DNA of 64,000 bases, taken from assembly GCA_965242725.1 (NCBI GenBank), contig CBDESZ010000004.1, positions 366,195-430,194 of the forward strand, in the 5' to 3' direction. This stretch comes from Alkalispirochaeta sp. (GTDB lineage Bacteria; Spirochaetota; Spirochaetia; DSM-27196; Alkalispirochaetaceae). Below are positions 46,579-62,894 of the stretch, piece by piece (position 1 is the first letter of the stretch; the number at the start of each line of letters is the position of its first letter). Below the pieces are notes generated by a model. It was given only the letters and a program-made list of their open reading frames with translations, was not told the DNA's origin and ran no database searches. The position numbers and the translations under genes were made by a program.

Positions 46579-47514
46579 TCAGTAGAAGTTAACCCGGAAC
46601 GGGAACAGGACTTTGCCGAGACCGCGGGCAAAGACCAGGCGCATTTGCGCCAGGCGCGGGGTCGGGTAGCGGTAGGAAATCAGCGCCGGGAAGAAGAAGA
46701 AGACGAGCTGGACCGACGCGGTCGCCATGATCATGGCGAAGTCGCGGATGCGGCGGTCGCTATGGCGCAACCGGGTGCGGACGTAGACCTGGGTCTTGGT
46801 AAACGTGCGGCGCGACCAATAGGCCAGCGACATACGCGACGTCGGCAGGAATTCGGTGACGACGGCGTCGGCGCACCAGACGAGGGTGCGGCCGCGGCGG
46901 TGCAGCCGCATGGTGAGGTCGGTGTCGGAGCCGCCGGTCAGGCCGAGGCCGGGATCGAAGGGCTCGGCATCGGGAAAACAGGTGGCGGCGCGAAACAGGA
47001 TGTTGCAGGTCGGGCCGTGGGGCACGGGGGAGCCGCTGGGCAGGCGTTTGTCGCGGACGGGCAGCTTGCCCTGGGGGTCCCACGCCGGCGGCGAGCCGCC
47101 CTCGAACGATGGATAGACCGGGCCGATGACGACATCGGCGGCGCTGCCACGGGCGGTGTCGACGATGGCGTCGAGCCAGGTCGGCGCGGCGATTTCGTCG
47201 TCGTCGATGAAGGCGACATATTCGGCGGTGCTGGCGGCGATGCCGGCGTTGCGGGCGCGGGCGATGTTGCGGCGCGGTTCGTGGACGTAGCGCAAGGGAT
47301 GGGGCGCCGACGCGGCCATCGCCTCGATCCGCTCACGAGATTTTCCGGCCGGGCTGTTGTCGACGACGATGACCTCGAACGTGACGCCGGCGCGGTTGTG
47401 CTGGGCCATCACGGACTCGATGGTGCGGTCGGCCATCTCGAACCGGTCGACGGTGAGGATGATGACCGAAACGTCGACGGTATCGGCCGCGGGAGTGGCG
47501 GCCGCCTCAGGCAT
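46579..47514 (-). CDS. GT2 glycosyltransferase (ExoM-like)
   Basis: VVDNSP, NIARARN, AFIDDDE, GGSD. Confidence 0.9.
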   Translation of the reverse strand: MPEAAATPAADTVDVSVIILTVDRFEMADRTIESVMAQHNRAGVTFEVIVVDNSPAGKSRERIEAMAASAPHPLRYVHEPRRNIARARNAGIAASTAEYVAFIDDDEIAAPTWLDAIVDTARGSAADVVIGPVYPSFEGGSPPAWDPQGKLPVRDKRLPSGSPVPHGPTCNILFRAATCFPDAEPFDPGLGLTGGSDTDLTMRLHRRGRTLVWCADAVVTEFLPTSRMSLAYWSRRTFTKTQVYVRTRLRHSDRRIRDFAMIMATASVQLVFFFFPALISYRYPTPRLAQMRLVFARGLGKVLFPFRVNFY

Positions 47515-48235
47515 TATAGTAGCCGCGCATGTAGCGCATCATGACGGCGAGGACGCGGAACCCGTAGGTGATGGGGTTGAGGTGGGATTCCTCGTCGCCG
47601 TAGTGGGTGGGGATGCCGAGTTCGTCGATCTTGAGGCCACGACGGCGGGACGCGGCGATGACCTCGACATCGAAATCGAAGGAGTGGCTGAGCTGCTCCA
47701 TAGGCAAGCTGTTAGCGGCGCGGCGGCTGTAGAGCATGTAGCCGGAGTGGTAGTCGGTGAGGTTGAGGCCGAACACCCGGTTTTCCATCCAGGTCAGGAT
47801 CTTGCCGGCGACGGCCTTGTAGCGCGGCATGCCGCCGGCCAGGGCGGTGCCGTCCTTGTGGCGGGAGCCCTGCAGCACGTCGACGCCGTTGGCGGCCATG
47901 TAGCGGACGAATTCAGGCATCTTTTCCGGTGGGTACTGACCGTCGGCGTGGAGACAGACGATGTACTCCGCCGCGGTTTCGAGACACAGGGACAGCCCCT
48001 GGCGAACGGCGGCACCGTAGCCGCTGTTCTGGGCAAAACTGTGGAGCACGACCTTGGGGAACCGTTCCTTGAGCGCGGTGACGACCTCTGCGGTGTCGTC
48101 GGCGCTGCCGTCGTTGACGACAAACACGGTGTCGATGGCGGGCCACGCCTCGGCCGGGATGCGGTCGAGGACGCCGCCGACGGTGGTGGCGGCGTTGTAG
48201 GCGGGGATGAAGATCGAAATGCTCGGTAGTTCCAT
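47507..48235 (-). CDS. GT2 polyprenyl-phosphate glycosyltransferase (DPM1/Ppm1-like)
   Basis: IPAYN, NDGSAD, N.GYGAA, HADGQY, GSR, TDYHSG, PTHYG; no TM tail. Confidence 0.85.
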   Translation of the reverse strand: MELPSISIFIPAYNAATTVGGVLDRIPAEAWPAIDTVFVVNDGSADDTAEVVTALKERFPKVVLHSFAQNSGYGAAVRQGLSLCLETAAEYIVCLHADGQYPPEKMPEFVRYMAANGVDVLQGSRHKDGTALAGGMPRYKAVAGKILTWMENRVFGLNLTDYHSGYMLYSRRAANSLPMEQLSHSFDFDVEVIAASRRRGLKIDELGIPTHYGDEESHLNPITYGFRVLAVMMRYMRGYYNA

Positions 48236-48255: not shown

Positions 48256-48603
48256 TTAACCCCGGCCGACCAAGGCGACGCCACCGCAGATCAAGGCGAC
48301 GCCGATGGCGTAGCGGACGTCGACACGCTCGCCGAACATGACCCAACTGGCCGCGGGGACCAGGACAAAGGCGATGGCCATGTAGGGGTAGGCGCGGCTG
48401 AGGTCGATGAACTGCAGGACCCAGACCCAGGCGAGGGTCGCCGTGCCGTAGACGAAAAACGCCGAAAACAGGGGCAGCAGCACCGACATCTGAAAGATGC
48501 CGTCGGTGGCCCGCATGCTGTTGGCGGCGAGTTTGAACAATACTTGGCCGACCGCGATCGCGACGACAATGCTGACCACGGTCAGGTTGGTCCAAATCGT
48601 CAT
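48256..48603 (-). CDS. Small 4-TM EamA/SMR-type protein (ArnE/ArnF-like flippase)
   Basis: 115 aa; GQVLFK; W...L....LSRAYP; FGE; G..LI..G. Confidence 0.8.
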   Translation of the reverse strand: MTIWTNLTVVSIVVAIAVGQVLFKLAANSMRATDGIFQMSVLLPLFSAFFVYGTATLAWVWVLQFIDLSRAYPYMAIAFVLVPAASWVMFGERVDVRYAIGVALICGGVALVGRG

Positions 48604-48740: not shown

Positions 48741-50639
48741 CTACCACAGCCGTTGTTTGTCGACGAAGATCATGTGCCAAAGTTCGAGAATTACCAGTGA
48801 ATACATCTGCTTGATGTAGACGAATTCTCGGGAGTCGACTTTTTCTTTCAAACTCTTGACGTACCCATAATCAAAATACCCGCGTTTATTTACGGCGTCT
48901 TCGTTCAGGGTCATGTCGACGAGTTCCTGGGCCGCGGGATTGCCGTAAAAGTGCTCAAGGGGGAAGTAAAACGGGTTCTTGGCGCGTTTTGCCGAGGCCT
49001 GGGGCAAGGTGCGGCGCGCGTATTCGCGCTCGATGTACTTGTCGGTCAGGCCGCGCACCTTGAGGTTGGGCGGGGTGCGGAAGGCGAGTTCGATGAGGCG
49101 GTGGTCGAGGAACGGGGCGCGCAGCTCGAGGGAGTGGGCCATGGTGTTTTTATCCTGCCGTAACAGCAGGTTATCCTGGAGCCAATCGTTGAATTGGAGC
49201 TTCAGCAGGCGGTCGAGGACGGCGCCGCCGGCGTCGCAGGACTCGCGCAGCAGGGCGTCGGTGGCGCGGTCGCGGAAGGCAGGGGCGTAGACCGCCCGGC
49301 GCTCGTCGTGGTCCCACAGGGTGCGCAGGAAGGCGTAGTTTTGCGCCAGGCTGCGTTCGGGAAAATCGCGTAAGTATTTGATAACGCGATCTTTTCCCTT
49401 GGTGCCGAGGTATGCCGGGTAGTTGAACAGGCGGTTCAGGGCGGCGACGGGGGTGGCCTGGAGCATGGGTAGCGCCAGACCGCGCTGGGCAATGCCCGGG
49501 ACGATGCGGTTCCACAGGTCGGTGTAGCGGATGATCTTGTGGAACGAATAGCCGGCGAACAGTTCGTCGGCGCCCTCCCCGCTGAGCACCACCTTGACCT
49601 CGGACGCGGCGGCCTTGGCGAGGTGGTAGTAGGCGAGGACGAGGGCGTCGCCGATGGGCCGCTCAAGGTGCCAGATGGCCTTGGGCAGGTCGGCGAATTG
49701 GGCCGGGCCGATGACGACCTCGTGGTGTTCGGTGCCGAAATGGTCGGCCAGGGCGCGGGCGTCGGGCAGCTCGTCGATGGGCGAGCCGAAGCCCAAGGAG
49801 AAGGTCTTAAAGCGGTCGACGAATTTGGCCATGGTGCCGACGACCAAGCTGGAATCGACGCCGGCGCTGAGATAGGCGGCGACGGGCACGTCGGAGCGCA
49901 GGGTGAGGCGGACGGCGTCGACGAAGGCGTCGTCGAAGGCGGCCAGGTACTCGTCGGCGTCGGCATAGGGACCGGCGGAAAGCTCGATATTCCAGTAGCG
50001 TTCGACGGTCAGGTCGGCGCCGGAGAGGCGCAGGGTGTGGCCGGCGGGCAGGACCTGGACGTCCTGAAACATGGTTTGCGGCTGGGGCGTGTAGCGCAGA
50101 CCGAGGAAACCGTCGATGGCGGCGGGATTGCAGGCGGCGGTGACGTGCATCGACTCGAGGATCGACTTGACCTCGGAGCCGAACAGGAACCGGCCGTTTT
50201 TATGTATATAATACAATGGCTTCTGGCCGGCGCGGTCGCGGGCCATGAAGACTTCGCCGGTGCGGGTGTCGTAGATGCAGAAGGCGAACATGCCGTTGAG
50301 GTGCTGGACGACGTCGGCGCCCCATTCCTCGTAGCCGTGAACCAGGACCTCGATGTCCGAATTGGTGGCGAACTTGTAGCCGGCGCCGCGCAGTTCGTTG
50401 CGCAGTTCGACATAGTTGTAGATCTCGCCATTGGCGACGACGGCGATGGTGCGGTCGGCGTTGAAGATGGGCTGGTCGCCGGTGTCGAGGTCGATGATCG
50501 ACAGGCGGCGCATGCCCATGGCGAACCGGTCATGCTCGAAGAAGCCCTCGCCATCGGGGCCGCGATGGACGATGACATCGGCCATGCGGCGCAGAAGCCC
50601 AGGTTCCTCGAATCCGGCGAAGCCGAATATTCCACACAT
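48741..50639 (-). CDS. asnB: Glutamine-dependent amidotransferase, asparagine synthase B family
   Basis: MCGIFG, HRGPD, RLSIID, NGEIYN, LSAGVDSS, SGEGADE, LELRAPFLD. Confidence 0.9.
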   Translation of the reverse strand: MCGIFGFAGFEEPGLLRRMADVIVHRGPDGEGFFEHDRFAMGMRRLSIIDLDTGDQPIFNADRTIAVVANGEIYNYVELRNELRGAGYKFATNSDIEVLVHGYEEWGADVVQHLNGMFAFCIYDTRTGEVFMARDRAGQKPLYYIHKNGRFLFGSEVKSILESMHVTAACNPAAIDGFLGLRYTPQPQTMFQDVQVLPAGHTLRLSGADLTVERYWNIELSAGPYADADEYLAAFDDAFVDAVRLTLRSDVPVAAYLSAGVDSSLVVGTMAKFVDRFKTFSLGFGSPIDELPDARALADHFGTEHHEVVIGPAQFADLPKAIWHLERPIGDALVLAYYHLAKAAASEVKVVLSGEGADELFAGYSFHKIIRYTDLWNRIVPGIAQRGLALPMLQATPVAALNRLFNYPAYLGTKGKDRVIKYLRDFPERSLAQNYAFLRTLWDHDERRAVYAPAFRDRATDALLRESCDAGGAVLDRLLKLQFNDWLQDNLLLRQDKNTMAHSLELRAPFLDHRLIELAFRTPPNLKVRGLTDKYIEREYARRTLPQASAKRAKNPFYFPLEHFYGNPAAQELVDMTLNEDAVNKRGYFDYGYVKSLKEKVDSREFVYIKQMYSLVILELWHMIFVDKQRLW

Positions 50640-50920
50640 GCTGACCAAAACCAGGGTGGCGGCATCCACCGAAGCGTTCGCCCAAGCGCGGTTTTTGCCG
50701 GAAATCCGCGCCGATCCGCGGCCATGATGCAGCGTTGGTGTGGCGGCAACTATGACCCTTCGTCACTAGACGTATGCTCTTTGGAATTAGATTTCGGATC
50801 GATCGGGATACGCCCGTACCCATAGCGCTAGACTGCGGGCGGGCCGGTATGGCGCTAGATTCGGGCCGCGGAATTGGCGCCACCGCCGGGATTGGCGCGC
50901 CACCGGAGCGGCCGAAAGCG

Positions 50921-52495
50921 ATGAACAACAGCGCGGTAGAAGACCCGATGGTCGCGGTGCGGCCGAGTGAGCGTACAGGGACCCGGTGGGCCGTGGTGTT
51001 GCTCGGCCTGGTCGGCGTCGGCCTGGTGTTGCGCCTGTTGGAGCTGACCAGCCATAGCCTGTGGTTCGACGAGGGGTTGAGCCTGAGTACCGCCCTGCCG
51101 GCGACGTTCGGCGGGTTCATGGCCAACCTTTCGGAAATGGGGCCCGGCCAGATCACGCAGCCGCTGTATTTCCTCATCCTGCACTGGTGGATCAAAATCG
51201 CCGGGGCGGGCGATGCCAGCCTGCGGCTGCTGTCGGTGCTGTTGGGCACGGCGGCGGTCGGGGTGACCACGATCGCGGCGCTGCAGATTTTTGGCCGGCG
51301 GCACGCGATGTGGGCGACGGCGTTCATGGCGACGAGCGGCTTCGCGGTCTACTACAGCCAGGAGATCCGGCCGTACGCGCTGCTGATGCTGCTGACGGCG
51401 TTGCTGGTGTGGGCGTACATGCGGGTCGCGGTGGCGCCGCGCTTGAGCGCCGGGCTGATTGCCGCGCTGACGGTGACGACGGTGTTGTCGCTGCTCGGCA
51501 GCTTCATTTTCGTGTTCTTCCTTACCGCCCTGGCGCTGGCCGACCTGGCGATCACGCTGCCGCGCAAGCCGGGCGGCTTCAAACGGTGGTTTCTGACCTG
51601 GCTGGTGCCGGGACTGGCGGCGCTGCCGGTGCTGGCGGTGTTTCTGGCGGCGTGGCCGTCGACGACGTCGGTGAGCGCGCCGCCGAACCCGTTGCTGAAC
51701 CTGTTCTACGTGCCGTTCGGGCTGATCGTCGGGCAGACTTTCGGGCCGCCGCTGGACACGCTGCGCGGCAGCGATGTGGTGCAGGTGGTGCTGCGGCAGT
51801 GGCCGCAGTTGCTGGCCCTGGCGGTGACCGGCCTGTTGTTGCTGGTCCAATTGCGGCGGCTGGTGATCAACGACGCCATGACGGCGCCGGCGCTGGCAGC
51901 GGTTCGCGCCGTGGGGCTGAGCATCGTGATTTCCTACGCCATCGGCGTGGTGATGGTGTTCGGGCTCGACTTCAACTGGTTGCCACGGCGGGCGTTCTAC
52001 CTGCTGGTGCCGTTGGCCTTGGTGCTGCCGGTGGCGGCGATGAGCGTCGAGCGGCGCTGGCTGGCGGGGATCCCGCTGGCGGCGCTGATCGCGCTGAACC
52101 TGATTTCGGTCAACACCTACTTCTTCGACCCGACCCATCGGCGGGACGAATACCGGGAGGCGTTGGCCTATCTCGACGGCCTGACCGACGCGCCGGCGGC
52201 GGCGGTGATCCTGGAAGGCAACCTGGAAGTGCTGAGGCACTACGGCCACCCGGAGATCATGGACGGGGTGTTCGCGTCGAAGACGGACGACTTCCTAGGG
52301 GCGATCGGCGAGCTGAGCGGCGGCGCCGACGCGCTGACGGTGCTGATCGCGCGGCCTTGGGATTTCCGGCGGCACTTTTCGGCGCGCAACGACCGGCCGT
52401 TCCTCGAGGTGATGGCCGACGATTGGACGCTGGCGGACCGGCAGAGCTTCGTAGCGATCGACGTCTATCGCTTTACCCGGCTACCGCAGAACTGA
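50921..52495 (+). CDS. GT-C fold membrane glycosyltransferase (PMT/ArnT-like)
   Basis: SLWFDE after TM1; PLYF..LH; LRLLS; YYSQEIRPY; about 11 TM helices; periplasmic C-terminus. Confidence 0.82.
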   Translation: MNNSAVEDPMVAVRPSERTGTRWAVVLLGLVGVGLVLRLLELTSHSLWFDEGLSLSTALPATFGGFMANLSEMGPGQITQPLYFLILHWWIKIAGAGDASLRLLSVLLGTAAVGVTTIAALQIFGRRHAMWATAFMATSGFAVYYSQEIRPYALLMLLTALLVWAYMRVAVAPRLSAGLIAALTVTTVLSLLGSFIFVFFLTALALADLAITLPRKPGGFKRWFLTWLVPGLAALPVLAVFLAAWPSTTSVSAPPNPLLNLFYVPFGLIVGQTFGPPLDTLRGSDVVQVVLRQWPQLLALAVTGLLLLVQLRRLVINDAMTAPALAAVRAVGLSIVISYAIGVVMVFGLDFNWLPRRAFYLLVPLALVLPVAAMSVERRWLAGIPLAALIALNLISVNTYFFDPTHRRDEYREALAYLDGLTDAPAAAVILEGNLEVLRHYGHPEIMDGVFASKTDDFLGAIGELSGGADALTVLIARPWDFRRHFSARNDRPFLEVMADDWTLADRQSFVAIDVYRFTRLPQN

Positions 52496-52599: not shown

Positions 52600-53559
52600 C
52601 TAAGCCGTGGTCGGATGATCCTCGGGCAGGGCATCGACCAGGGTGTCGGCACCATCCATTTCGATGGGGAACGAGCGCTGCATGCCCTCGTGGACACCGA
52701 TGGGGTCGTAGCCGAAGTCGCGCACGTTGGGCTGCCAATCGGGGTTGGCATCCTGGCTGAGGCCGGCGATGCCCTGCCAGGTAACCGGCGGGTTCTTCAT
52801 CACCAGGCCCATGACAAAGGCGGCGAACCGCAGGACGGGCACCGGCACGGGGATGAACAACTTGGCGCCGACGCCGCGGTGCTTGAGGATCAGCCGGGCG
52901 AAATCCCACATGGAGATCTCTTCACTGCCCGAGAAGGCGTAGGTCTTGCCGTAGGTGTTGGGGTTTTTGTAGAGGGCGAACAGGCCGCGTTCCATGTCCG
53001 AGACATGAACCGGGTTCTTCACGGCGTTGCCCAAACCGACCATGGGCACGACGGGCAGGCGCAACAACATGTCCATGAACTTCATGAACTCGATGCCGCC
53101 GTCGGGGCCGTAGGCCAAGGTGGGCCGGACGATGGTGTAGTGCATCGCCTTCTGCTCCTTGATCATGCGCTCGCCTTCGCGCTTCGACAGGGAATATTCC
53201 GTCGGGTGCGGGTAGGTGACCGAGATCGAGGAAACAGAAATGAAGTGGTTAACGCCGGCGTCGATGGCGCCGTCGATCATGTTGCGCGTGCCGTCGACAT
53301 TGACCTTTTGGAACAACGCCGGGGTCGGGGGCAGCAATACCGCCGCCAAGTGGTAGACGGTATCAACCCCATCGAAGACGCCGTCGAGGCTGGAAGCGTC
53401 GGACACATCGCCATAGCGAATATCGACATCCAGGCCCTTGAGGCGGGGCTCACCCGGGTCATTCGGAAGGATTAGGACGCGCACCCTTTCGCCGCGTTCG
53501 ATGAAGCCACGCACCAGCGAGGACCCCATGAAACCAGCGCCGCCAGTAATCAGGATCAT
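52600..53559 (-). CDS. NAD(P)-dependent epimerase/dehydratase family (extended/atypical SDR)
   Basis: ITGGAGFMG, HLAA, YSLSK, RPTLAYG. Confidence 0.85.
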   Translation of the reverse strand: MILITGGAGFMGSSLVRGFIERGERVRVLILPNDPGEPRLKGLDVDIRYGDVSDASSLDGVFDGVDTVYHLAAVLLPPTPALFQKVNVDGTRNMIDGAIDAGVNHFISVSSISVTYPHPTEYSLSKREGERMIKEQKAMHYTIVRPTLAYGPDGGIEFMKFMDMLLRLPVVPMVGLGNAVKNPVHVSDMERGLFALYKNPNTYGKTYAFSGSEEISMWDFARLILKHRGVGAKLFIPVPVPVLRFAAFVMGLVMKNPPVTWQGIAGLSQDANPDWQPNVRDFGYDPIGVHEGMQRSFPIEMDGADTLVDALPEDHPTTA

Positions 53560-53939
53560 GGTATCAACACATTCCAAATATCGCGGTTAAACAAAATATC
53601 AGTAAGCGTTACCGATCTAACTGTAACCCAATCCGAAATCTCGCTGCCCGCGCATTTATCGGTAAAGGCTTCGTTATGCATGGGTACCTCGTTAACGATT
53701 TCCGATCCGACTGGGTTACCCCATTTTAGACCTGTCGCTTCGTTATATTTTTCCGCGTTATCGGTGGTGGGTTTATTGTTCGACGGGTAAGCAATTCGGC
53801 GGCGGTTTTCGTGGCGCTTATCCCAAACGGTTCGTTGATCTGGAATTGGTTCGCTGGCTATATCCGTTGAGTTTTCCCGCTCAAGGCGCCCGGCAAGATT
53901 TGACGGCCCGGCGTCGAGAGTCCCCTGGAGGCAAGATCG

Positions 53940-54770
53940 ATGTCGGTGAAAGCCGCCTCGTCTAATTGTGAAATCGCCGCCGACACGCCGCCGTCCGCAC
54001 GGGTCAACGTGCTGGGTGTCGGGGTCAGCGCGGTCAACCTGACGTCGGCGACCGAGACCATCGGCCGGTGGATCGACACGCGGGCCAATACCTACGTCTG
54101 CATCACCGGGGCGCACGGGGTGATCGAGAGCCAGAAGGACGACACCCTGCGCGGCATTCACAACGCCGCGGGCATGGTAACGCCGGACGGCATGCCGCTG
54201 GTGTGGCTGAGCCGGTTGCGCGGGCAACGGACGGTGGACCGGGTTTACGGCCCCGACCTGATGGCCGAGGTGTGCGACAAGATGCGTGAGCGCGGTTGCC
54301 GGCATTTCCTGTACGGCGGCAACACCGGGGTGGCGGAGAAGCTGGCCGACGCGCTCAGGGCGCGGTTCCCGGGGATCGAGATCGCCGGCACCTACACGCC
54401 GCCGTTCCGGGCGTTGACGGACGAGGAAGACGCGGCGGTCGTCGAGATGATCAACGACAGCGGCGCCGACATCGTCTGGGTCGGGCTGAGCACGCCGAAG
54501 CAAGAGTATTGGATGTCGGCGCACGCCGGGCGGACCAACGCCGCGGTGATGGTCGGCGTCGGCGCGGCGTTCGATTTTCACGCCGGGCTCAAGGAGCAGG
54601 CGCCGCGGTGGATACAGCGCAGCGGCTTCGAATGGCTTTTCCGGCTGGTGACGGAGCCGAAGCGGCTGTGGCGCCGGTATGCGGAGATCGTGCCGTTGTT
54701 CCTGCTGCTGGTCGCGCTGGAGAGCCTCGGGCTGAGGCGGCGCCGGCTGGATCAGGGTTCGGCGGCTTAA
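53940..54770 (+). CDS. WecB/TagA/CpsF glycosyltransferase (GT26)
   Basis: PDGMP, RVYGPDL, GL.TPKQE, GVGAAFDF, GFEWLFRL..EPKRLWRRY. Confidence 0.92.
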   Translation: MSVKAASSNCEIAADTPPSARVNVLGVGVSAVNLTSATETIGRWIDTRANTYVCITGAHGVIESQKDDTLRGIHNAAGMVTPDGMPLVWLSRLRGQRTVDRVYGPDLMAEVCDKMRERGCRHFLYGGNTGVAEKLADALRARFPGIEIAGTYTPPFRALTDEEDAAVVEMINDSGADIVWVGLSTPKQEYWMSAHAGRTNAAVMVGVGAAFDFHAGLKEQAPRWIQRSGFEWLFRLVTEPKRLWRRYAEIVPLFLLLVALESLGLRRRRLDQGSAA

Positions 54771-54806
54771 TCAAATTCAGAGCATTGGATTTTTGGAGGA
54801 GTGTTG

Positions 54807-55805
54807 ATGTTGGATCTTGATAATGAAGTTCTGGTGACGGGAGCCGGGGGCTTCATTGGCGGGCACCTGGTCGCGCACCTGTTGAAGCACGGGCACCAGA
54901 AGGTGCGGGCCGTCGACGTCAAGCCGATGAGCCAGTGGTACCAGGTGTCGGCGGACGCGACGAACCTGCAGCGCGACCTGATGGACAAGGGTGCGTGCGA
55001 GGAAGCGGCCGACGGCGTCGGCTACATCTACAACCTGGCGGCCGACATGGGCGGCATGGGGTTCATCGAGAACCACAAGGCCGACTGCATGCTGTCGGTG
55101 CTGATCAACACCCACCTGCTGATGGCGGCGCGGGACGCCGGCGTGAAGCGGATGTTCTTCTCGTCGTCGGCATGCGTGTACGCGGCGGACAAGCAGACCT
55201 CGGCGGACGTTGAGCCGCTGCGGGAGGCCGACGCCTACCCGGCGATGCCGGAAGACGGCTACGGCTGGGAGAAGCTGTTCAGCGAGCGCATGTGCCGCCA
55301 CTTCAGCGAAGACTTCGGCATCGAGACGCGGGTGGCGCGCTACCACAACGTGTACGGGCCGAACGGCACCTATGACGGCGGCCGCGAGAAGGCGCCGGCG
55401 GCGATCTGCCGCAAGGTGATCGAGGCGAAGATGTCCGGCAAGCACGAGATCGAAATCTGGGGCGACGGCGAGCAGACCCGCAGCTTCATGTACATCGACG
55501 ACTGCCTGAAGGGCACCGACATGATCATGCGCGGGCACTTCAGCGAACCGCTGAACCTGGGCAGCGACGAGTTGGTGACGATCAACCAGCTGGTCGACGT
55601 GGTCGAGAAAATCGCCGGGGTCGAGCTGAAGCGGAACTACAAGCTCGACGCGCCGAAGGGCGTGCGGGGCCGGAACAGCGAAAACTCCCTGATCAAGGAA
55701 GTGTTCGACTGGGCGCCGAACATCTCCCTGGAGACCGGCATGGAGAAGACCTACCGCTGGATCCACGACCAAATGGCGGCGCGCTACGCCGTCGCGGCCA
55801 AGTAA
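54807..55805 (+). CDS. GDP-mannose 3,5-epimerase-like protein
   Basis: NLAADMGGMGFI, SSACVY, YGWEK, GGREKAPAA.CRK, GVRGRNS: motifs recalled from plant GME. Confidence 0.85.
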   Translation: MLDLDNEVLVTGAGGFIGGHLVAHLLKHGHQKVRAVDVKPMSQWYQVSADATNLQRDLMDKGACEEAADGVGYIYNLAADMGGMGFIENHKADCMLSVLINTHLLMAARDAGVKRMFFSSSACVYAADKQTSADVEPLREADAYPAMPEDGYGWEKLFSERMCRHFSEDFGIETRVARYHNVYGPNGTYDGGREKAPAAICRKVIEAKMSGKHEIEIWGDGEQTRSFMYIDDCLKGTDMIMRGHFSEPLNLGSDELVTINQLVDVVEKIAGVELKRNYKLDAPKGVRGRNSENSLIKEVFDWAPNISLETGMEKTYRWIHDQMAARYAVAAK

Positions 55806-55860: not shown

Positions 55861-57225
55861 GTGACCGCACAGGCCGAAATCTACGAAGCCGCCGATCGCC
55901 GGGCCGCCATGTACGAGCGGCTCGGCGTCTGGCTTTTCGTCGCCATCCTGCTGTTCGTGGCGATCGGGACATCGCCGTTTTCGGCGCTAGAGGTGGTCGA
56001 ATCGCCGGCCGACGGCGGCAACTTCATCAACCGGGTGACGTGGGTGACCTTCGCCATCGTGTCGTTGGCGCTGGGCTTCGCCCGGGACTCGACGGCGGCG
56101 TTGCGATTGTTCGTGCGGGCCTGGCCGGCCTGGCTGGTGATCGGCTGGGCGTTGCTTTCGTTTATGTGGGCCGACCACCCGGACCTGGCGGTGCGGCGGT
56201 CGGTACGGTTGGCGATTGTCGCGGTGACCGGCTTCGGGTTGGCGTTGACGATGCCGGACCCGAAGAAGTTCATGCCGCTGATGCTGGTGGTGACCGGCAT
56301 CGTGCTGACGATCAACGTGCTCGGCAGCGTCGCCCTGCCGCACATCGCGGTGAGCGAATCCGGTTACCGGGGCATGCATTCGCACAAGAACACGGCGGGT
56401 CAGGTGACGCTGGTCGCGGTGCTGGCGTGGATGGTGGCGGCGGCCATCGTACGCGACGTGCGGGCGCGGATGCTGGTGACGCTGGGCGCCGTGGCGTGGG
56501 CCGGCTTCCTGGTGCTGACCCAGTCGAAGACCAGCTTGGGTGCGGCGGCCATCGTACCGCTGGCGCTGATCGCCGGGAACATGGTGATGCGCGCCGAACG
56601 GCTGCCGGGGCGGGCGCTGGCGGCCTTGTTCTTCTCCATTCTGATGGCGCTGTGGTTTGCCATGCTGGCGCTTGGATTGGATTGGACCGACTTCGCCTTA
56701 TTCTTCTTCGATGACCTGACGTTCACCGGCCGGACGTCGTTGTGGTCGTTCATCTCGACGGAGATCCGGGAGTCGCCATGGCTCGGGGTGGGATACGGCT
56801 CGTTCTGGCAGACCGGGCTGCGTTTCAGTCCCCTGGAGTACACCCGGGAATGGTTCAACAACGCGTCGCAATCGCATAACGGCTACCTGGACCTGATCCT
56901 GCACCTGGGCTTCATCGGCCTGGGCCTGGGACTGCTGGCGATCGTGCAGTCCTTGGTCGCGGCACTGCGGCTGTTGGGGCGGCCCAACATCGGCACCGCC
57001 GAACAGGGCGCTTACCTGATGGCGATGGCGTTCCTGCTCGGCATCATGGTGATGAACTTCATGGAAACGTCCTACTTCCGGTCGGCCGGGTATCTCGGGA
57101 CGATCTTCCTGTTTGTGTACTTCGCGGTGATCCGTTGGGGACTGGACGCACCGGAGTCGGCGACGGATTCCGAGGAGGCTGGGCAAGGGCCGCGACTCGT
57201 CGCGGCAGACGCAACCGTTCGGTAA
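55861..57225 (+). CDS. Wzy polymerase / O-antigen ligase family (ExoQ-like)
   Basis: Multi-TM; HKN..G; SKTS; TFTGRT..W; PWLGVGY..FW; SHNGYLD. Confidence 0.85.
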   Translation: MTAQAEIYEAADRRAAMYERLGVWLFVAILLFVAIGTSPFSALEVVESPADGGNFINRVTWVTFAIVSLALGFARDSTAALRLFVRAWPAWLVIGWALLSFMWADHPDLAVRRSVRLAIVAVTGFGLALTMPDPKKFMPLMLVVTGIVLTINVLGSVALPHIAVSESGYRGMHSHKNTAGQVTLVAVLAWMVAAAIVRDVRARMLVTLGAVAWAGFLVLTQSKTSLGAAAIVPLALIAGNMVMRAERLPGRALAALFFSILMALWFAMLALGLDWTDFALFFFDDLTFTGRTSLWSFISTEIRESPWLGVGYGSFWQTGLRFSPLEYTREWFNNASQSHNGYLDLILHLGFIGLGLGLLAIVQSLVAALRLLGRPNIGTAEQGAYLMAMAFLLGIMVMNFMETSYFRSAGYLGTIFLFVYFAVIRWGLDAPESATDSEEAGQGPRLVAADATVR

Positions 57226-57581: not shown

Positions 57582-58676
57582 ATGCAAATCAAAAATATCC
57601 TGATTTTGGGCTGTGGCGGTTTTATTGGCAGCCACCTGCTGGACCGGCTTCTGGCCGACGGCGGTTTCAATATTATCGGTTGGGATTTGAGCGCCGAGAA
57701 GATTGCGAGCCAATTGGACAATCCGCGGTTTGACTTCCGGCAGAACGATGCGTTCTCCGACGAGAAACTTGACGAGCTGGAGCGGGCGGTTATCGACGCC
57801 GACGTGGTGATCTCGCTGGCGGCGATCTGCAACCCGTCGCGGTACAACACCGAGGCGATCGCGACGATCCACTCGAACTTCACCCACTTGGCGAAACTCG
57901 CCGAGGTGTGCGCCAAGCACAAACGCTGGATCATTCATGCGTCGACCAGCGAGGTTTACGGCCGGACCCTGACCAGCTACCTGCCGAACAACACCTACGA
58001 CGATCCGAAACTGTACGAGCAGATCGAGGACGAGACCCCGCTGATCATGGGGCCGATCACCAACCAGCGCTGGAGCTATGCGTGCGCCAAGCAGCTGTCG
58101 GAGCGTCTGCTGTACGCGTATCACACCGAGCACGACATGCCGATCACCATGTTCCGGCCGTACAACTTCTTCGGCCCCCGCATGGACTTCATCCCGGGGC
58201 GCAACGGCGAAGGCGTGCCGCGGGTGCTGGCGTGCTTCATCACGGCGCTGCTCGACCGGACGCCGATGCAGTTGGTCGACGGCGGCCACGCCCGCCGGGC
58301 GCTGCTGTACATCGACGACGCGGTGGACGCGCTGTACCGCATGTTGAAGATGCCGATGGCGGCGCAGAACCAGATCTTCAACCTGGGGAGCCGGCAGAAC
58401 GAGCTGTCGATCCGCGAGTTGGCGGAGATGATGCGCACGGCGTACGCCGAGGTGACCGGCGACGCGACCTACTACCAGCACCCGATCGTGGAGACCACGG
58501 GCGAGGCGTTCTACGGCGAAGGCTACGAGGATTGCGACCGGCGGGTGCCGGACGTGACCAAGGCGCGCCGCCTGCTGGGCTGGGAGCCGCAAGTCGGTCT
58601 GCAAGAGACCATCAACAACACCGTCCGTTACTTCTACAACGAGTTCGGCCGGACCGCTGTTGAAGCGGCTGAGTAG
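57582..58676 (+). CDS. UDP-D-apiose/UDP-D-xylose synthase (plant AXS-like bacterial UAS)
   Basis: GGFIGSHL, LAAICNP..YNT, QRWSYACAKQL, GPRMDFIPG, EGVPRVLACF, LVDGG, FYGEGY. Confidence 0.85.
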   Translation: MQIKNILILGCGGFIGSHLLDRLLADGGFNIIGWDLSAEKIASQLDNPRFDFRQNDAFSDEKLDELERAVIDADVVISLAAICNPSRYNTEAIATIHSNFTHLAKLAEVCAKHKRWIIHASTSEVYGRTLTSYLPNNTYDDPKLYEQIEDETPLIMGPITNQRWSYACAKQLSERLLYAYHTEHDMPITMFRPYNFFGPRMDFIPGRNGEGVPRVLACFITALLDRTPMQLVDGGHARRALLYIDDAVDALYRMLKMPMAAQNQIFNLGSRQNELSIRELAEMMRTAYAEVTGDATYYQHPIVETTGEAFYGEGYEDCDRRVPDVTKARRLLGWEPQVGLQETINNTVRYFYNEFGRTAVEAAE

Positions 58677-58714: not shown

Positions 58715-60283
58715 ATGTCCGACCGCGGCCGCAGCGCAAAGGATAGCAACGTGACCTTCGGGGCTGCAGGTAGCGGGCCCACGTTGGGGACCGACGTTCC
58801 GCACGCGCCGGCCCCACCCGCCATGGGCGAAGGTGCCGCGCGGTACGTCGACCGTGGCGGCCGCGTCAAACCAACCATAGATCGCGATATCGTCACCGGG
58901 CTGCTGCGGGTGTTCGACCTGTTGGCGGTGGCCGGCAGCGGCATCGGCGTGGCCTACGCGACGACGGGCATGAGCGCGGCGTGGCAGGTGCTGGCGGCGC
59001 TGCTCGCCGCCATCGTCACGGAACGGGTGCTGAGCCTGTCGGGGCTCTACACGCCGGCGGCGTTACGGCGGCTCGGCCGGGTGCCGACGGCGACCCTGGC
59101 GGCCGGGGCGGTGTTTGTCGTCGGCGCGGCGCTGGTGGTGGCGAGCGGCATCAGCATGCTGGCGATGTCCGACCTGCCGACGCTGCCGTGGGATCTGGCG
59201 TGGGGCGCGGCGGCGGCGAGTGCCGCGCTGGTGGCGCTGATCGCCGGGCGGCTGGTGCTGGCCGGGCTGATCGGGCTGTGGCAGCGGCGCGGGCTGTGGG
59301 CGGAAAAAGTGGTGATCGCCGGGCGGGAGGCCGATGCCTGGCGGGCGGCGACGGAGCTGACGGCGGAGAGCGACGGCGACGTCGCCGTGGTCGGCGTGTT
59401 CGCCGACAACATGTCGCCGCGGCTGGCCGGCCTGAGCCGGCCGGACATGGGCGAGATCGAGGTCGGCCACATCGACGAGGCGGTGCGCTTCTGCCACGCC
59501 CAGCGGGTCGACACGGTGATCATGACGGCGCCGGAAGTGGGCAGCCAGAGCACCCAAGGCTGGATGGCGCGGCTGTCGGAGCTGGCGACGCGGATCGAGG
59601 TGCTGCCGAACGCGGCCTCGCTGCCGCAGGGCACCGCGCTCGGGGCACGGCGGGTGGTGCTGCTGCCGCGGCCGCACACGGGTTGGGCGCGGGTCGCCAA
59701 GACCCTGGAGGACCGGGTGCTGGGCTCGCTGATCTTCCTGGGCATCCTGCCGATCATGATCGCGATCGGCGTCGCCATCCGGCTCGACAGCCGGGGACCG
59801 GCGCTGTTCCGGCAAGAGCGCATGGGCTACGACAACAAGCCGTTCACGGTGCTGAAGTTCCGCACCATGCGGGTCGAAACCGGGTCCGACGGGGCCAATC
59901 AAACCCGGCCGGACGATGACCGCATCACGCGGATCGGCGCGTTTCTGCGGGCGAAGAGCCTGGACGAGTTGCCGCAGTTCTGGAACGTGGTGACCGGCAG
60001 CATGTCGATCGTCGGGCCGCGGCCGCACCCGCCGGTGATGCTGACGGAAGGGCGGCGGCACGAGGACGTGGTGCCGCTGTACGGGCGGCGGCACCGGGTG
60101 AAGCCCGGGATCACCGGCTGGGCGCAGATCAGCGGCTGGCGCGGCGCGACGCACACCCAAGAGCAACTGCGCCAACGGGTGGCGCACGACCTGGCGTACA
60201 TCGACAATTGGTCGCTGTGGTGGGACCTGAAGATCATCGCCAAGACGGCGCTGACCGGGTTTTCCGACGAAGCGGCATACTGA
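58715..60283 (+). CDS. Initiating polyprenyl-phosphate glycosylphosphotransferase (WcaJ/GumD-like)
   Basis: N-terminal TM helices; FRQERMG, KFRTM, SLDELPQF.NV..G.MSIVGPRP, KPGITGWAQ, DL.YIDNWSLW.DL. Start codon uncertain. Confidence 0.9.
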   Translation: MSDRGRSAKDSNVTFGAAGSGPTLGTDVPHAPAPPAMGEGAARYVDRGGRVKPTIDRDIVTGLLRVFDLLAVAGSGIGVAYATTGMSAAWQVLAALLAAIVTERVLSLSGLYTPAALRRLGRVPTATLAAGAVFVVGAALVVASGISMLAMSDLPTLPWDLAWGAAAASAALVALIAGRLVLAGLIGLWQRRGLWAEKVVIAGREADAWRAATELTAESDGDVAVVGVFADNMSPRLAGLSRPDMGEIEVGHIDEAVRFCHAQRVDTVIMTAPEVGSQSTQGWMARLSELATRIEVLPNAASLPQGTALGARRVVLLPRPHTGWARVAKTLEDRVLGSLIFLGILPIMIAIGVAIRLDSRGPALFRQERMGYDNKPFTVLKFRTMRVETGSDGANQTRPDDDRITRIGAFLRAKSLDELPQFWNVVTGSMSIVGPRPHPPVMLTEGRRHEDVVPLYGRRHRVKPGITGWAQISGWRGATHTQEQLRQRVAHDLAYIDNWSLWWDLKIIAKTALTGFSDEAAY

Positions 60284-61464
60284 TGACCCCGGCAACGCGC
60301 AACGTCTTGATCGTCTACGAGATGGTCAAGCACTACCGCGCGCCGTTCTACGAGGCGTTGCATGACCGCCTGCTGGCGCGGGGGGTGAAGCTGCGGGTGG
60401 CCTACGGCAAGCCGCGGGGCAGCCACGCGAAGATGCGCGACCTGGTGCGGCTGCGCGACGACATCGAGCTGGTGGTGCCGGCGCGGTGGTTCCTGCGCGA
60501 CAAGCTTGTCTACATGGGGATAGGCCGGGCGGTGGCGCAAGCCGACCTGGTGATCGTCGAGCAGGCGGTGAAGTACGTGTGGAACGTGCCGCTGGTGCTG
60601 GGCTCGATGCTCGGGCTGGTGCGCCTCGGGCAATGGGGGCACGGCTGGAACCGGGTCAAAGGCACCGGGCCCGTCGAATGGCTGAAGCGTAAGGCGATCC
60701 GGCACTGCGACTGGTGGTTCGCCTACACCCAAGGCACGGCGGATTATGTGATCAAACACGGGATGCCGGCGGACCGGGTGACGGTGACGTGGAACGCGCT
60801 GGACATGGCGCCGCTACAAAACGCGATCGACGGCACCACGGATGCCGACCTGGCGGCGCTGCGGACGGCACACGGCATCCCGGGCGACGCCAAGGTCGGG
60901 ATCTACGCCGGCGGGTTGTACGACCTGAAGCGGCTGCCCGACCTGCTGGACGCCGCCGAGGCGGTGAAGGCGCGGGTGCCCGACTTCCACCTGCTGATCT
61001 TGGGCGACGGCCCGGAAGGCGACATGGTGCGGGCGCGGGCGGCGGCGACCGACTGGATACACACGCTGGGGCCGACGTTCGGCGCCGCCAAGGCGCACTG
61101 CCTGCGGCTGGCCGACGTGTTCCTGTGCCCCGGGGTGATGGGGCTGGCGGTGCTCGACGCGTTCGCCGGGGCGATGCCGATCCTGACCATGGACATCGTC
61201 GGGCACGGGCCGGAAGAAGAGTACCTGGAGCACGGCGTCAACGGGTTGCGGACGGCGGCCAGCGCGGCGGCCTTCGGGACGGCGACGGCGGATCTGCTGA
61301 ACGACGCGGAGCGGCTGGCGGCGATGAAGGCGGCGGCGGCCGAGGCGGCCGGGACCTACACCCTGGACCGGATGGTCAGCGCCTTCGAGGATGGGATCCT
61401 GAAGGCGCTGGGCGAGGTACCGGCCGAAGCCTCCCCGGCGACGCCGGCGCCGGCCAACGCCTAG
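60283..61464 (+). CDS. GT4 glycosyltransferase
   Basis: HYR.PF, WGHG, K.L..L, GDGP, GLAVLDAF, GPE.EY. Confidence 0.85.
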   Translation: MTPATRNVLIVYEMVKHYRAPFYEALHDRLLARGVKLRVAYGKPRGSHAKMRDLVRLRDDIELVVPARWFLRDKLVYMGIGRAVAQADLVIVEQAVKYVWNVPLVLGSMLGLVRLGQWGHGWNRVKGTGPVEWLKRKAIRHCDWWFAYTQGTADYVIKHGMPADRVTVTWNALDMAPLQNAIDGTTDADLAALRTAHGIPGDAKVGIYAGGLYDLKRLPDLLDAAEAVKARVPDFHLLILGDGPEGDMVRARAAATDWIHTLGPTFGAAKAHCLRLADVFLCPGVMGLAVLDAFAGAMPILTMDIVGHGPEEEYLEHGVNGLRTAASAAAFGTATADLLNDAERLAAMKAAAAEAAGTYTLDRMVSAFEDGILKALGEVPAEASPATPAPANA

Positions 61465-61547: not shown

Positions 61548-62894
61548 CTACTCGGCGACGTCGATTTGCTCGGTCCAGCGCGGGATCCAGGCGCGGCCGA
61601 CGCTGACGTAGTCGATGCCGGCGGCGGCCATGTCGGCCGGGTCGTAGAGGTTGCGCAGGTCAACGACCTGGGGTTCACGGAGCAGCGCCTTCATGCGGGT
61701 GATGTCGAGGCGCTTGAACTCGTCCCATTCGGTGACGATGACCGCGACATTGGCGCGGGCGACGGCGCTGTAGGGGTCGTCGACCCACTCGACGCCCTGG
61801 GTCAGGGCAGCGGCCTGTTGCATGGCCTCGGGGTCGTAAGCGCGGACGTGGACACCGGCGGCCTGGAGGCCGGCGATGATGTCGAGGGCCGGGGACTCGC
61901 GCATGTCGTCGGTGTTGGCCTTAAAGGCGACGCCGAGGAGGGCGGCGGTGGCACCGACGGTGTTGCGGCCGAGCATGCCGAGGACCTTTTCGGTCATCTC
62001 GCGCTTGCGAGCGTCGTTGGCGTCGATGGCGGCCTCGGTAATGCGCAGGGTCTTGCCGTTGGCGCGGGCGATGTTGCGCAGGGCACGGGTGTCCTTGGGG
62101 AAGCAGGAACCGCCGTAGCCGGGCCCGGGATTGAGGAATTGCGGACCGATCCGGCTGTCGAGGCCCATGCCGGCGGCGACGTCGGAGATATCGGCGCCGA
62201 CCATCTCGGCGAGGTCGGCGACCTCGTTAATGAAGCTGATCTTGGTCGCCAGGAAGCTGTTGGCGGCGTACTTGATGAGCTCGGCGGTGTCGATATTGGT
62301 AAACAGGGTGCTGGCGCCGCGCTCGGCCAACGGGCGGTAGAGGATGCGCATGAGGCGGCGGGCGCGGCGATCGGCGGTGCCGATGACGACGCGGTCGGGG
62401 TTCAGGAAATCGCCGACGGCGCTGCCCTCGCGGAGGAACTCGGGGTTGGAGACGACCGCGAAATCGAGGTCGGGGCGGAGCTGGCGGATGCGCTTTTCGG
62501 TGGCGCGGCCGGTGCCGACGGGCACGGTCGACTTGTTAACCACGACGGTGAAGCCCCGGAAATGGGGGACGGCGTCCTCCAGGGCGGCGAACAGCTGGCT
62601 GAGGTCGGCGTCGCCGTCTTCGTCCTTGGAGGGGGTGCCGACGGCCATGAACACGGCGTCGGCGTTGCTGACGGCGGCGGCCATGTCATCGGTGAAGGTG
62701 AGGCGGCCGGCGGCGACGTTGGCGACGACGAGGTCGGAGAGGCCGGGCTCAAAAATCGGGATCTGTCCGTCGGTCAGAGCGGCGATCTTGGACGTGTCCT
62801 TGTCCATGCAGGTCACGGACCAGCCCAACTCCGCAAAACACGTGCCCGCAACCAGGCCTACATAGCCCGTACCAATAACTGCTACCCGCGTCAC
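61548..62894 (-). CDS. ugd: UDP-glucose 6-dehydrogenase
   Basis: GTGYVG, KSTVPVG, NPEFLREG, KYAAN.FLATKISFIN, GYGGSCFPKD, AFK.NTDDMRE. Confidence 0.95.
   Translation of the reverse strand: MTRVAVIGTGYVGLVAGTCFAELGWSVTCMDKDTSKIAALTDGQIPIFEPGLSDLVVANVAAGRLTFTDDMAAAVSNADAVFMAVGTPSKDEDGDADLSQLFAALEDAVPHFRGFTVVVNKSTVPVGTGRATEKRIRQLRPDLDFAVVSNPEFLREGSAVGDFLNPDRVVIGTADRRARRLMRILYRPLAERGASTLFTNIDTAELIKYAANSFLATKISFINEVADLAEMVGADISDVAAGMGLDSRIGPQFLNPGPGYGGSCFPKDTRALRNIARANGKTLRITEAAIDANDARKREMTEKVLGMLGRNTVGATAALLGVAFKANTDDMRESPALDIIAGLQAAGVHVRAYDPEAMQQAAALTQGVEWVDDPYSAVARANVAVIVTEWDEFKRLDITRMKALLREPQVVDLRNLYDPADMAAAGIDYVSVGRAWIPRWTEQIDVAE

Follow-up and report, generated by a model that had tools for sequence, protein, structure and literature searches.

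A gene at positions 57582..58676 of a 64,000-nt stretch of Alkalispirochaeta sp. DNA (hereinafter designated the window; GenBank assembly GCA_965242725.1, contig CBDESZ010000004.1, positions 366,195 to 430,194) very probably encodes an active synthase of UDP-apiose and UDP-xylose (UAS), as judged from its sequence. Across several bacterial phyla the UAS gene lies near a gene for a family 2 glycosyltransferase (GT2) of polyprenyl-phosphate type, and the window contains this GT2 along with an ArnE-like membrane protein and a GT-C fold glycosyltransferase. On the strength of this gene set and of the GT2-UAS linkage we therefore predict apiosylation or xylosylation by way of a lipid carrier in the periplasm rather than a cytoplasmic Leloir step, and on balance we favour the lipid-carrier route as the fate of the UAS product. 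The features on which the argument turns are listed below.

57582..58676 (+): UAS open reading frame (ORF), a short-chain dehydrogenase/reductase (SDR) of the extended type, 364 aa long, with an ATG start (ORF list and motifs, phmmer search of the PDB, likeness to the Geminicoccus roseus protein)
47507..48235 (–): soluble GT2 of ~242 aa, DPM1/PpgS/ArnC type, predicted polyprenyl-phosphate pentosyltransferase (Pfam, PDB, NCBIfam)
48256..48603 (–): ArnE-like four-helix membrane protein of 115 aa (EamA/SMR type), predicted subunit of a lipid-linked sugar flippase (NCBIfam, BLAST)
50921..52495 (+; ORF open from 50774): GT-C fold glycosyltransferase (PMT_2/GT39/ArnT-like), 524 aa from the called start (fold search, homologues)
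52600..53577 (–): HpnA/3-beta-HSD/NDUFA9-like SDR, recurrent third member of the cassette (Pfam, NCBIfam)

The predicted UDP-apiose/UDP-xylose synthase

The first-pass annotation of the window had assigned this gene to the UDP-apiose synthases on the basis of short motifs, all of which are present in the ORF at exactly 57582..58676 (+): LAAICNP, QRWSYACAKQL, GPRMDFIPG, EGVPRVLACF, FYGEGY and STSE (within HASTSEVYG). The third-codon-position GC of the gene (0.88) matches that of its neighbours, and a purine-rich stretch, GGGTAGCTTAGGAAT, lies 5′ of the ATG. The product is an extended SDR (PF01370, 144 bits in Pfam) with an N-terminal GxxGxxG-type NAD site (GCGGFIGS, residues 10-17) and retained catalytic residues T122, Y166 and K170. 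In a phmmer search of all PDB chains the top match is Arabidopsis AXS1 (6h0n; E 3.8e-98, 332 bits, residues 5-358), with lower scores for ArnA (212 bits), Burkholderia PbgP3 (187) and human UXS (97). The PDB alignments also reveal a 13-residue stretch (query ~134-148) that is common to UAS and AXS1 and absent from ArnA, and ArnA departs from UAS at GPRMDFIPG and EGVPRVLACF, bearing out the statement that ArnA reads differently. Entry 6h0p differs from 6h0n solely at the Cys of LAAIC(T)P and is the C100A variant (PMC7984243).

Bacterial UAS enzymes have been known since 2017, and recombinant UAS of G. roseus (GrUAS) forms UDP-apiose as well as UDP-xylose (PMC5607165). The protein P0034, which the sources ascribe to G. 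roseus and UniRef names UDP-apiose synthase, shares 58% identity with the window UAS (488 bits). In a collection of 5.8 billion proteins the nearest clusters are 95, 86, 76, 74 and 70% identical; 6333 clusters match at E<=1e-20, a total that also takes in more distant SDRs, and many of the related clusters carry the JGI name UDP-apiose/xylose synthase. NCBIfam contains no UAS model. UAS scores 282.1 bits against NF008872, under the cut-off of 294, and 251.6 against NF005998, under 777; on NF008872 the G. roseus protein reaches 276.7, the closest homologue (locus L009) 265.4 and the C-terminal domain of E. coli ArnA 506.6. Judged by these scores, the near-miss of UAS is a generic property of bacterial UAS proteins. 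A Fibrobacterota UAS-like protein that retains the Cys100 equivalent (L088:9998-11071) even exceeds the cut-off, with 306.5 bits. As NCBIfam has no UAS model and scores fall near or above the UDP-4-keto-pentose synthase cut-off, UAS proteins are at risk of being mis-named. A search of the source genome with the ArnA model returned only the UAS gene and two formyltransferase-domain matches.

A quick IQ-TREE phylogeny was built from 86 rows, namely UAS, proteins from 77 of 80 genome loci (see below), P0034, the C-terminal domain of E. coli ArnA and six UXS-like proteins of congeners. The short L061, L072 and L077 and L007 (internal stop) were left out, as were plant AXS (AXS1 included), XpUAS and CeUAS (Entotheonella). 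All 79 bacterial UAS-like rows split from the UXS-like rows with support of 100 and also from ArnA, which sits on a very long branch. UAS itself groups with L009 and L010, two metagenome-assembled genomes (MAGs) of Alphaproteobacteria (support 100), and the trio lies within a 21-row sub-clade with an SH-aLRT (approximate likelihood-ratio test) value of 80; the G. roseus protein and sequences from Alloyangia (formerly Yangia) belong to another clade of 56 rows (support 92). Taken with the 332 bits for AXS1 and with the residue Cys83 considered next, this tree sides with the first-pass annotation in placing the protein among UDP-apiose/UDP-xylose synthases and not with ArnA or UXS.

Nine of the ten AXS1 signature residues in Table 3 of PMC12820599 are retained in UAS (Y88, T122, E124, R163, Y166, K170, N195, R321 and C83), covering the catalytic Tyr, Lys and Thr and the equivalents of Glu141, Arg182, Arg341, Asn214, Tyr105 and Cys100. 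Cys83, within LAAICNP, corresponds to AXS1 Cys100, a residue linked to ring opening that is reported as Ala in UXS and ArnA (PMC12820599). The position is Cys in 79 of 79 bacterial UAS-like rows and Ala in all six UXS-like rows and in E. coli ArnA. The tenth signature residue, AXS1 Cys140 (STCE), is not retained and reads Ser123 (STSE) in UAS. The suggestion that this substitution might shift the apiose:xylose ratio loses its basis, because Ser is the majority state at this position (55 of 79 rows) and is also found in the G. roseus protein (STSE); GrUAS produces apiose and xylose at ~1.7:1, like the plant enzymes (PMC5607165).

A scan of ~185,600 genomes, one per species, gave 221 candidate stretches, 200 of which encode a UAS relative; the best 80 were kept as UAS-seeded loci. 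These 80 belong to Pseudomonadota (40), Myxococcota (8), Cyanobacteriota (6), Actinomycetota (6), Thermodesulfobacteriota (4) and Acidobacteriota (3), with one locus each in six more phyla and seven unassigned, at least 12 phyla in total. Bacterial UAS is rare yet phylogenetically wide, and it extends well beyond the few species for which the first-pass annotation mentioned reports of it. Among 40 relatives of the source genome, 16 of them congeners, we found no UAS orthologue; 7 of the 16 congeners encode a UXS-like protein of ~33% identity to UAS. In the source genome itself (91.8% complete) no separate UXS-like gene was found, the next-best match having an E value of 5.8e-8. One delta-proteobacterial MAG carries two near-identical UAS copies on two contigs (L039 and L042), only one of which has a GT2 gene within 10 kb.

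Linkage with a polyprenyl-phosphate-type glycosyltransferase

The GT2 at 47507..48235 matches PF00535 (90 bits), and no hydrophobic segment was counted in it. All four of its PDB matches at E<=1e-5 are to enzymes acting on lipid carriers, Pyrococcus dolichyl-phosphate-mannose synthase and three ArnC sequences. In a separate comparison it is 24% identical to E. coli ArnC (E 7e-13). In NCBIfam it scores best on PpgS, AglJ, dolichyl-phosphate hexose transferase and ArnC, each time under the cut-off. The motifs NDGS.D and HADGQYPPE are invariant among the aligned GT2 sequences, as expected of a GT-A domain bearing a DxD-type motif. The family numbers 2466 clusters in the protein collection at E<=1e-40, with generic names throughout.

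When 23 window proteins were compared by tblastn with the 80 UAS-seeded loci (±10 kb), this GT2 was the only one to recur widely near UAS. It is present in 20 of the 80 loci at 54-68% identity, plus a fragment in L022, and lies within 300 bp of UAS in 17 of those 20. Greedy ORF picking yielded many shadow ORFs in high-GC loci, and tblastn and Pfam were relied on instead; all-vs-all clustering of 4525 ORFs likewise returned GT2 as the sole broadly shared neighbour family, followed by Ugd with 8 loci. Carriers of the UAS-GT2 pair include Myxococcota, Spirochaetota, Acidobacteriota, Binatota, Bacteroidota, Fibrobacterota and several Pseudomonadota; among cultured organisms, Roseobacter sp. HKCCA0434 (L045) has the two genes side by side. 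In the L009 and L010 genomes the GT2 (75 and 73% identical, respectively) lies just past the locus edge, in a run of asnB, arnE-like, GT2 and GT2 genes like that of the window. Counterparts of the polytopic protein (46-49%), the SDR (74-77%), Wzy, the initiating transferase and GT4 are present at these two loci as well, in a layout that resembles that of the window. A GT2 orthologue was found nowhere in five genomes whose UAS gene is without this neighbour (Geminicoccus harenae, Alloyangia pacifica, Waterburya, Actinoplanes and Halomonas tibetensis; best 34% identity), nor in the 40 relatives of the source genome (best 34%).

The reverse test gave a consistent picture. Metagenome contigs were scanned with 18 aligned GT2 sequences (mean column identity 69%); 324 of 438 stretches encoded a relative, and the best 80 were kept. 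A UAS-like gene (>=40% identity) is present in 62 of these 80 GT2-seeded loci and within 300 bp in 57; of the 18 without one, 13 have <1.5 kb of flank on one side. On the UAS tree 7 changes account for the GT2 label, compared with a mean of 19.7 after shuffling, in a type of count that kinship inflates, and GT2 is carried by 17 of the 20 other rows of the sub-clade to which UAS belongs. In L116, L117, L122 and L138 an SDR gene lies directly upstream of GT2 with no UAS in flanks of 2.7-6 kb; either UAS is farther off, which is the situation in the window, or GT2 and SDR are able to function with another sugar source.

The ArnE-like protein encoded beside GT2 has four hydrophobic segments, scores 48.7 bits on the ArnE model (cut-off 92) and 35.8 on ArnF, and is 38% identical to E. 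coli ArnE over 55 aa (E 7e-10). Copies that are 65-70% identical occupy the same position in L089 and L090 only, and tblastn (E<=1e-3) found no relative in the 80 UAS-seeded loci, so the evidence for a conserved flippase partner is confined to the closest genomes.

The polytopic protein at 50921..52495 gave only a chance-level match in a PDB sequence search. PF13231 (PMT_2) is present in its homologues, for which the sources use the names GT39 or ArnT-like. The protein has at least 10 hydrophobic segments, and residues D50 and E51 of its LWFDEG motif do not vary across 25 sequences. The AlphaFold2 model (predicted local distance difference test, pLDDT, 87.5; predicted template modelling score, pTM, 0.89) has Cupriavidus ArnT (5f15) as its best Foldseek match (E 3.9e-7, TM 0.58), and the further matches are all GT-C enzymes (STT3, PMT, DPY19, ALG and Aft). 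As modelled, the protein thus has a GT-C fold, and its first periplasmic loop bears an acidic motif. PMT_2 or GT87 GT-C genes occur in 10 of 82 UAS-GT2 loci, several of the matches being weak, in arrangements such as UAS-GT2-GT87 (L052) and PMT_2-GT2-UAS (L065); many more polytopic ORFs in these loci have no Pfam match. Two UAS-GT2 loci encode a ~900-aa fusion of an N-terminal PMT_2 domain with a C-terminal pectic acid lyase domain (PF09492; L065:3-2678 (–) and L130:8459-11203 (+)), an odd combination to find there, given that the sugar in question is known above all from pectin.

Homologues of the SDR at 52600..53577 are present in the UAS-seeded loci L009, L010 and L088 and in 32 of the 80 GT2-seeded metagenome loci, commonly in the order UAS-GT2-SDR. 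In eight SDR-bearing loci an MBOAT gene follows, and L088 also has AlgX genes. The resulting Fibrobacterota-type cassette consists of UAS, GT2, SDR, a small ORF and MBOAT (L088:13343-18437, L140, L142, L143, L144, L147, L159 and L163), with two AlgX-like SGNH proteins in that of L088. The presence of MBOAT and AlgX suggests O-acylation of the same target glycan.

The analysis establishes family membership, retained catalytic residues, the GT-C fold and linkage of the genes in many phyla. Combining these elements, with all activities, the transferred sugar and the acceptor being predicted, we propose the following route. Ugd would supply UDP-glucuronic acid (UDP-GlcA), which UAS would convert into UDP-apiose plus UDP-xylose. 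The GT2 at 47507-48235 would load one of the two pentoses, apiose or xylose, onto polyprenyl phosphate at the inner face of the membrane, and the ArnE-like protein (48256-48603) may help to flip the lipid-linked pentose. In the periplasm the GT-C enzyme (50921-52495) would add the pentose as a side residue to the polysaccharide made by the Wzx/Wzy genes of the same locus. The SDR (52600-53577) may epimerise or otherwise modify the lipid-linked sugar. If the lipid carrier is used, we lean towards apiose, rather than xylose, as the sugar transferred.

The polysaccharide locus and competing routes

The remaining genes of the locus were assigned by Pfam and NCBIfam scans, Pfam covering 34 window ORFs.

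39234-40631 (–): ManC
40717..42942 (–): Wzc-type chain-length protein/tyrosine autokinase (Pfam and NCBIfam; Wzz and kinase domains)
42981..43595 (–): Wza-type polysaccharide export protein (Poly_export, SLBB)
44023..45312 (+): candidate Wzx flippase, a 429-aa polytopic protein with ~9 hydrophobic segments, a lead only
45417-46577 (+): beta-helix protein
46579..47514 (–): second GT2, EpsD-like and 311 aa long, whose gene overlaps the first GT2 gene at the latter's end (Pfam and NCBIfam)
48741..50669 (–): AsnB-type (asparagine-synthase-type) amidotransferase, first of the asnB, arnE-like, GT2, GT2 run (Pfam and NCBIfam)
53940..54770 (+): GT26 of the WecG/TagA/CpsF family (Pfam and NCBIfam)
54801..55805 (+): extended SDR, Fcl/GalE-like, putative nucleotide-sugar enzyme (all matches under cut-offs)
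55861..57225 (+): Wzy_C-domain polymerase/ligase-like membrane protein (PF04932, 41.8 bits; 8 hydrophobic segments)
58715..60283 (+): WcaJ-like polyprenyl glycosylphosphotransferase, the initiating enzyme (Bac_transf; EPS_sugtrans 356 bits, over the 295.55 cut-off)
60208..61464 (+): GT4 glycosyltransferase (Pfam and NCBIfam)
61548..62894 (–): Ugd, UDP-glucose 6-dehydrogenase (three UDPG_MGDP_dh domains; NDP-sugar dehydrogenase model 438.7 bits, over the 189.8 cut-off)

Most of the Wzx/Wzy-type locus described in the first-pass annotation is recovered here, with Ugd, the Wzy_C protein, the WcaJ-like enzyme, Wza, Wzc and GT2, GT4 and GT26 transferases in place; the Wzx assignment is the part that does not carry over beyond a lead. 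The candidate Wzx has no Pfam or NCBIfam match, and its look-alikes in a language-model search partly carry Polysacc_synt. The second GT2, likely a repeat-unit transferase, is retained after the polyprenyl-phosphate-type GT2 in L089, L090 and L096. AsnB copies are 72% identical in L089 and L090 and 88% identical over the 161 residues held in L096, and the amidotransferase recurs at 58-88% identity in L089, L090, L096, L111 and L113. Given that the locus also encodes Ugd, this enzyme may act on a uronic acid in the polymer and turn it into an amide. GC content is 0.62-0.68 over 42-58 kb versus 0.68-0.74 in the rest of the window, which, together with the absence of UAS and GT2 from relatives, fits joint acquisition. 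Upstream of the locus, adjoining an FtsH gene, lies a gene for a 1029-aa protein that consists nearly throughout of Sel1 repeats (30399-33488 (–); 16 matched stretches, 550 bits).

Several observations weigh against the lipid-carrier route. The window GT2 is 9.3 kb from UAS and on the other strand, the GT2 partner is absent from 57 of the 80 UAS loci, and no UAS lies within 6 kb in five GT2-seeded loci whose flanks are ample. The sub-clade to which UAS belongs has support of only 80 and contains no characterised enzyme in the tree. The NCBIfam matches of the GT2, the ArnE-like protein and the SDR all fall under the curated cut-offs, and the GT-C protein has no significant BLAST similarity to E. 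coli ArnT. Further points on the same side come from what is known of UAS products and of the enzymes that use them, and are taken up with the two alternatives to which they belong.

The first alternative, which we regard as rather unlikely, is that UAS serves as a source of UDP-xylose, the xylose reaching the polymer by either route and UDP-apiose being a decaying by-product. All characterised UAS enzymes also form UDP-xylose, and UDP-apiose is unstable in vitro (PMC5607165). Such instability would make tight coupling to a transferase sensible. Both UAS products are used in Xanthomonas pisi (PMC6193724), and the source genome is without the UXS-like gene that 7 of the 16 congeners possess. 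Against this, a simple UXS would be a cheaper way to xylose, and the invariant Cys at the Cys100 position of all 79 rows, where UXS and ArnA have Ala, argues for selection on the apiose-forming chemistry.

The second alternative is that UDP-apiose is used directly in the cytoplasm by the Leloir-type GT2 at 46579-47514, by GT26 or by GT4, giving an apiose-containing repeat unit on undecaprenyl diphosphate, in which case the GT2, ArnE-like and GT-C module would carry some other sugar. The locus does contain three Leloir transferases, and UAS lies between the Wzy gene and the initiating transferase gene on the same strand, the latter beginning 38 bp downstream of UAS. The apiosyltransferase of X. 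pisi is a cytoplasmic GT90-like Leloir enzyme encoded beside UAS (PMC6193724), and direct use must be common, because a GT2 partner is missing from so many UAS loci. Recurrence of the three Leloir transferases with UAS, however, stops at the two closest genomes, and no GT90-like protein was seen by Pfam among the 34 window ORFs, whereas the polyprenyl-phosphate-type GT2 recurs with UAS across many phyla and is accompanied by UAS in most GT2-seeded loci. The comparative evidence, together with the presence of the GT2, ArnE-like and GT-C genes, thus favours the carrier route over direct use of UDP-apiose by a transferase of the locus as first envisaged, and we judge direct use in the window unlikely. 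The presence of ArnC-, ArnE- and ArnT-like genes would also accommodate a decarboxylase of ArnA/RsU4kpxs type, its product UDP-4-keto-pentose feeding an Arn-like modification in which lipid A or some other target receives an amino-pentose, but this is highly improbable given the sub-cut-off NF008872 score, which the proven GrUAS shares (277, against 507 for the ArnA domain), the 120-bit lead of AXS1 in the PDB, Cys83 in place of the Ala of ArnA, and a scan of locus ORFs in which neither an aminotransferase of ArnB type nor a deformylase of ArnD type was seen.

Relation to known systems

GrUAS, XpUAS and CeUAS (Smith & Bar-Peled 2017, PMC5607165) and plant AXS1/UAXS (6h0n, 6h0p) belong to the same SDR family as the window UAS and are of the same length, and UAS resembles GrUAS in having Ser at the Cys140 position. 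The window UAS is distinguished by its sub-clade, which is mostly linked to a polyprenyl-phosphate GT2 and has no characterised member in the tree, and by its position within a Wzx/Wzy-type locus; PMC5607165 reports no conserved operon around bacterial UAS. In X. pisi, the operon consists of XpUAS, XpApiT (GT90-like) and XpXylT (GT2, pfam13704) (Smith & Bar-Peled 2018, PMC6193724), so that there, too, UAS is encoded together with transferases, which use both of its products. The X. pisi enzymes are Leloir transferases that take UDP-apiose and UDP-xylose directly, whereas the DPM1/ArnC-type GT2 and the GT-C protein of the window imply a lipid-phosphate donor.

The predicted pathway follows the logic of the Arn pathway of lipid A modification and is built from related parts. 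In each, the decarboxylase acting on UDP-GlcA is from the ArnA/UAS/UXS family, a GT2 charges undecaprenyl phosphate, the flippase is small and of SMR/EamA type, and a GT-C enzyme works in the periplasm. It differs in that the locus has no formyltransferase domain, ArnB or ArnD and its decarboxylase is of UAS type, with Cys for the Ala of ArnA. In addition, the window GT2 is soluble and ~240 aa long compared with the 322 aa of ArnC, the GT-C protein is without BLAST similarity to ArnT, and the setting is an exopolysaccharide locus rather than a lipid A operon. GtrABC and mycobacterial PpgS/Rv3779 are further systems that combine a lipid-phosphate donor with a GT-C enzyme.

The O1/O2 systems of Citrobacter youngae, with a polyprenyl-phosphoribose synthase, a MATE flippase, a GT136 GT-C enzyme and the SDR epimerase ORF13 (Kelly et al. 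2024, PMC11127046), share with the predicted route the logic of a lipid-phosphate sugar that is made in the cytoplasm, flipped and added by a GT-C enzyme to a finished or growing polysaccharide. In both cases an auxiliary cytoplasmic SDR accompanies the lipid-linked pentose, and apiose is likewise a pentofuranose; the O2 ORF13, which converts undecaprenyl-phosphate-ribofuranose to the xylofuranose form (PMC11127046), provides a precedent for the role suggested for the window SDR. C. youngae, however, starts from phosphoribosyl pyrophosphate (PRPP) with a UbiA-type phosphoribosyltransferase and relies on MATE and GT136 proteins, whereas in the window the donor would come from a UDP-sugar through GT2, with an SMR/EamA-type flippase candidate and a PMT_2/ArnT-like GT-C protein. 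A term count for PMC11127046 gave no occurrence of apiose.

Apiose has long been regarded as a plant sugar; what has been characterised in bacteria so far is the synthase and one X. pisi transferase, and no bacterial glycan that bears apiose is known to have been defined (PMC5607165, PMC6193724). We found no description of a lipid-linked apiose donor or of a UAS-GT2 pairing in a literature search outside of which most subscription journals lay. The link between UAS and the polyprenyl-phosphate GT2, with GT-C enzymes nearby, offers a testable route with named enzymes. Because the window holds the whole cassette inside a single polysaccharide locus, together with Ugd, an initiating transferase, a polymerase and export genes, a single polymer is left as the likely acceptor to consider. 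Should the route prove correct, the locus would name the first concrete acceptor candidate, an apiosylated bacterial exopolysaccharide. It would also extend the three-component scheme of the Arn, Gtr and pentofuranose systems to a branched-chain sugar, supply a nucleotide-sugar-fed counterpart to the PRPP-fed pentofuranose systems, and provide fresh donor/transferase pairs for glycoengineering. More generally, we put forward as a tentative proposal that bacteria have a polyprenyl-phosphate-apiofuranose donor, produced by a GT2 that has co-evolved with UAS across phyla and sometimes remodelled by the SDR, and that GT-C enzymes use it to decorate envelope glycans.

A related arrangement is seen in two congeners without UAS, in which a UXS-like decarboxylase gene lies within ~500 bp of a gene for an AglJ/PpgS-like GT2 (L003 (G013:C90), 1474-2445 and 2897-3859; L004 (G004:C160)). 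The decarboxylase is ~33% identical to UAS and the GT2 27-31% identical to that of the window. Encoding a UDP-GlcA decarboxylase beside a lipid-carrier GT2 may thus be a wider theme, possibly serving lipid-linked xylose in these genomes.

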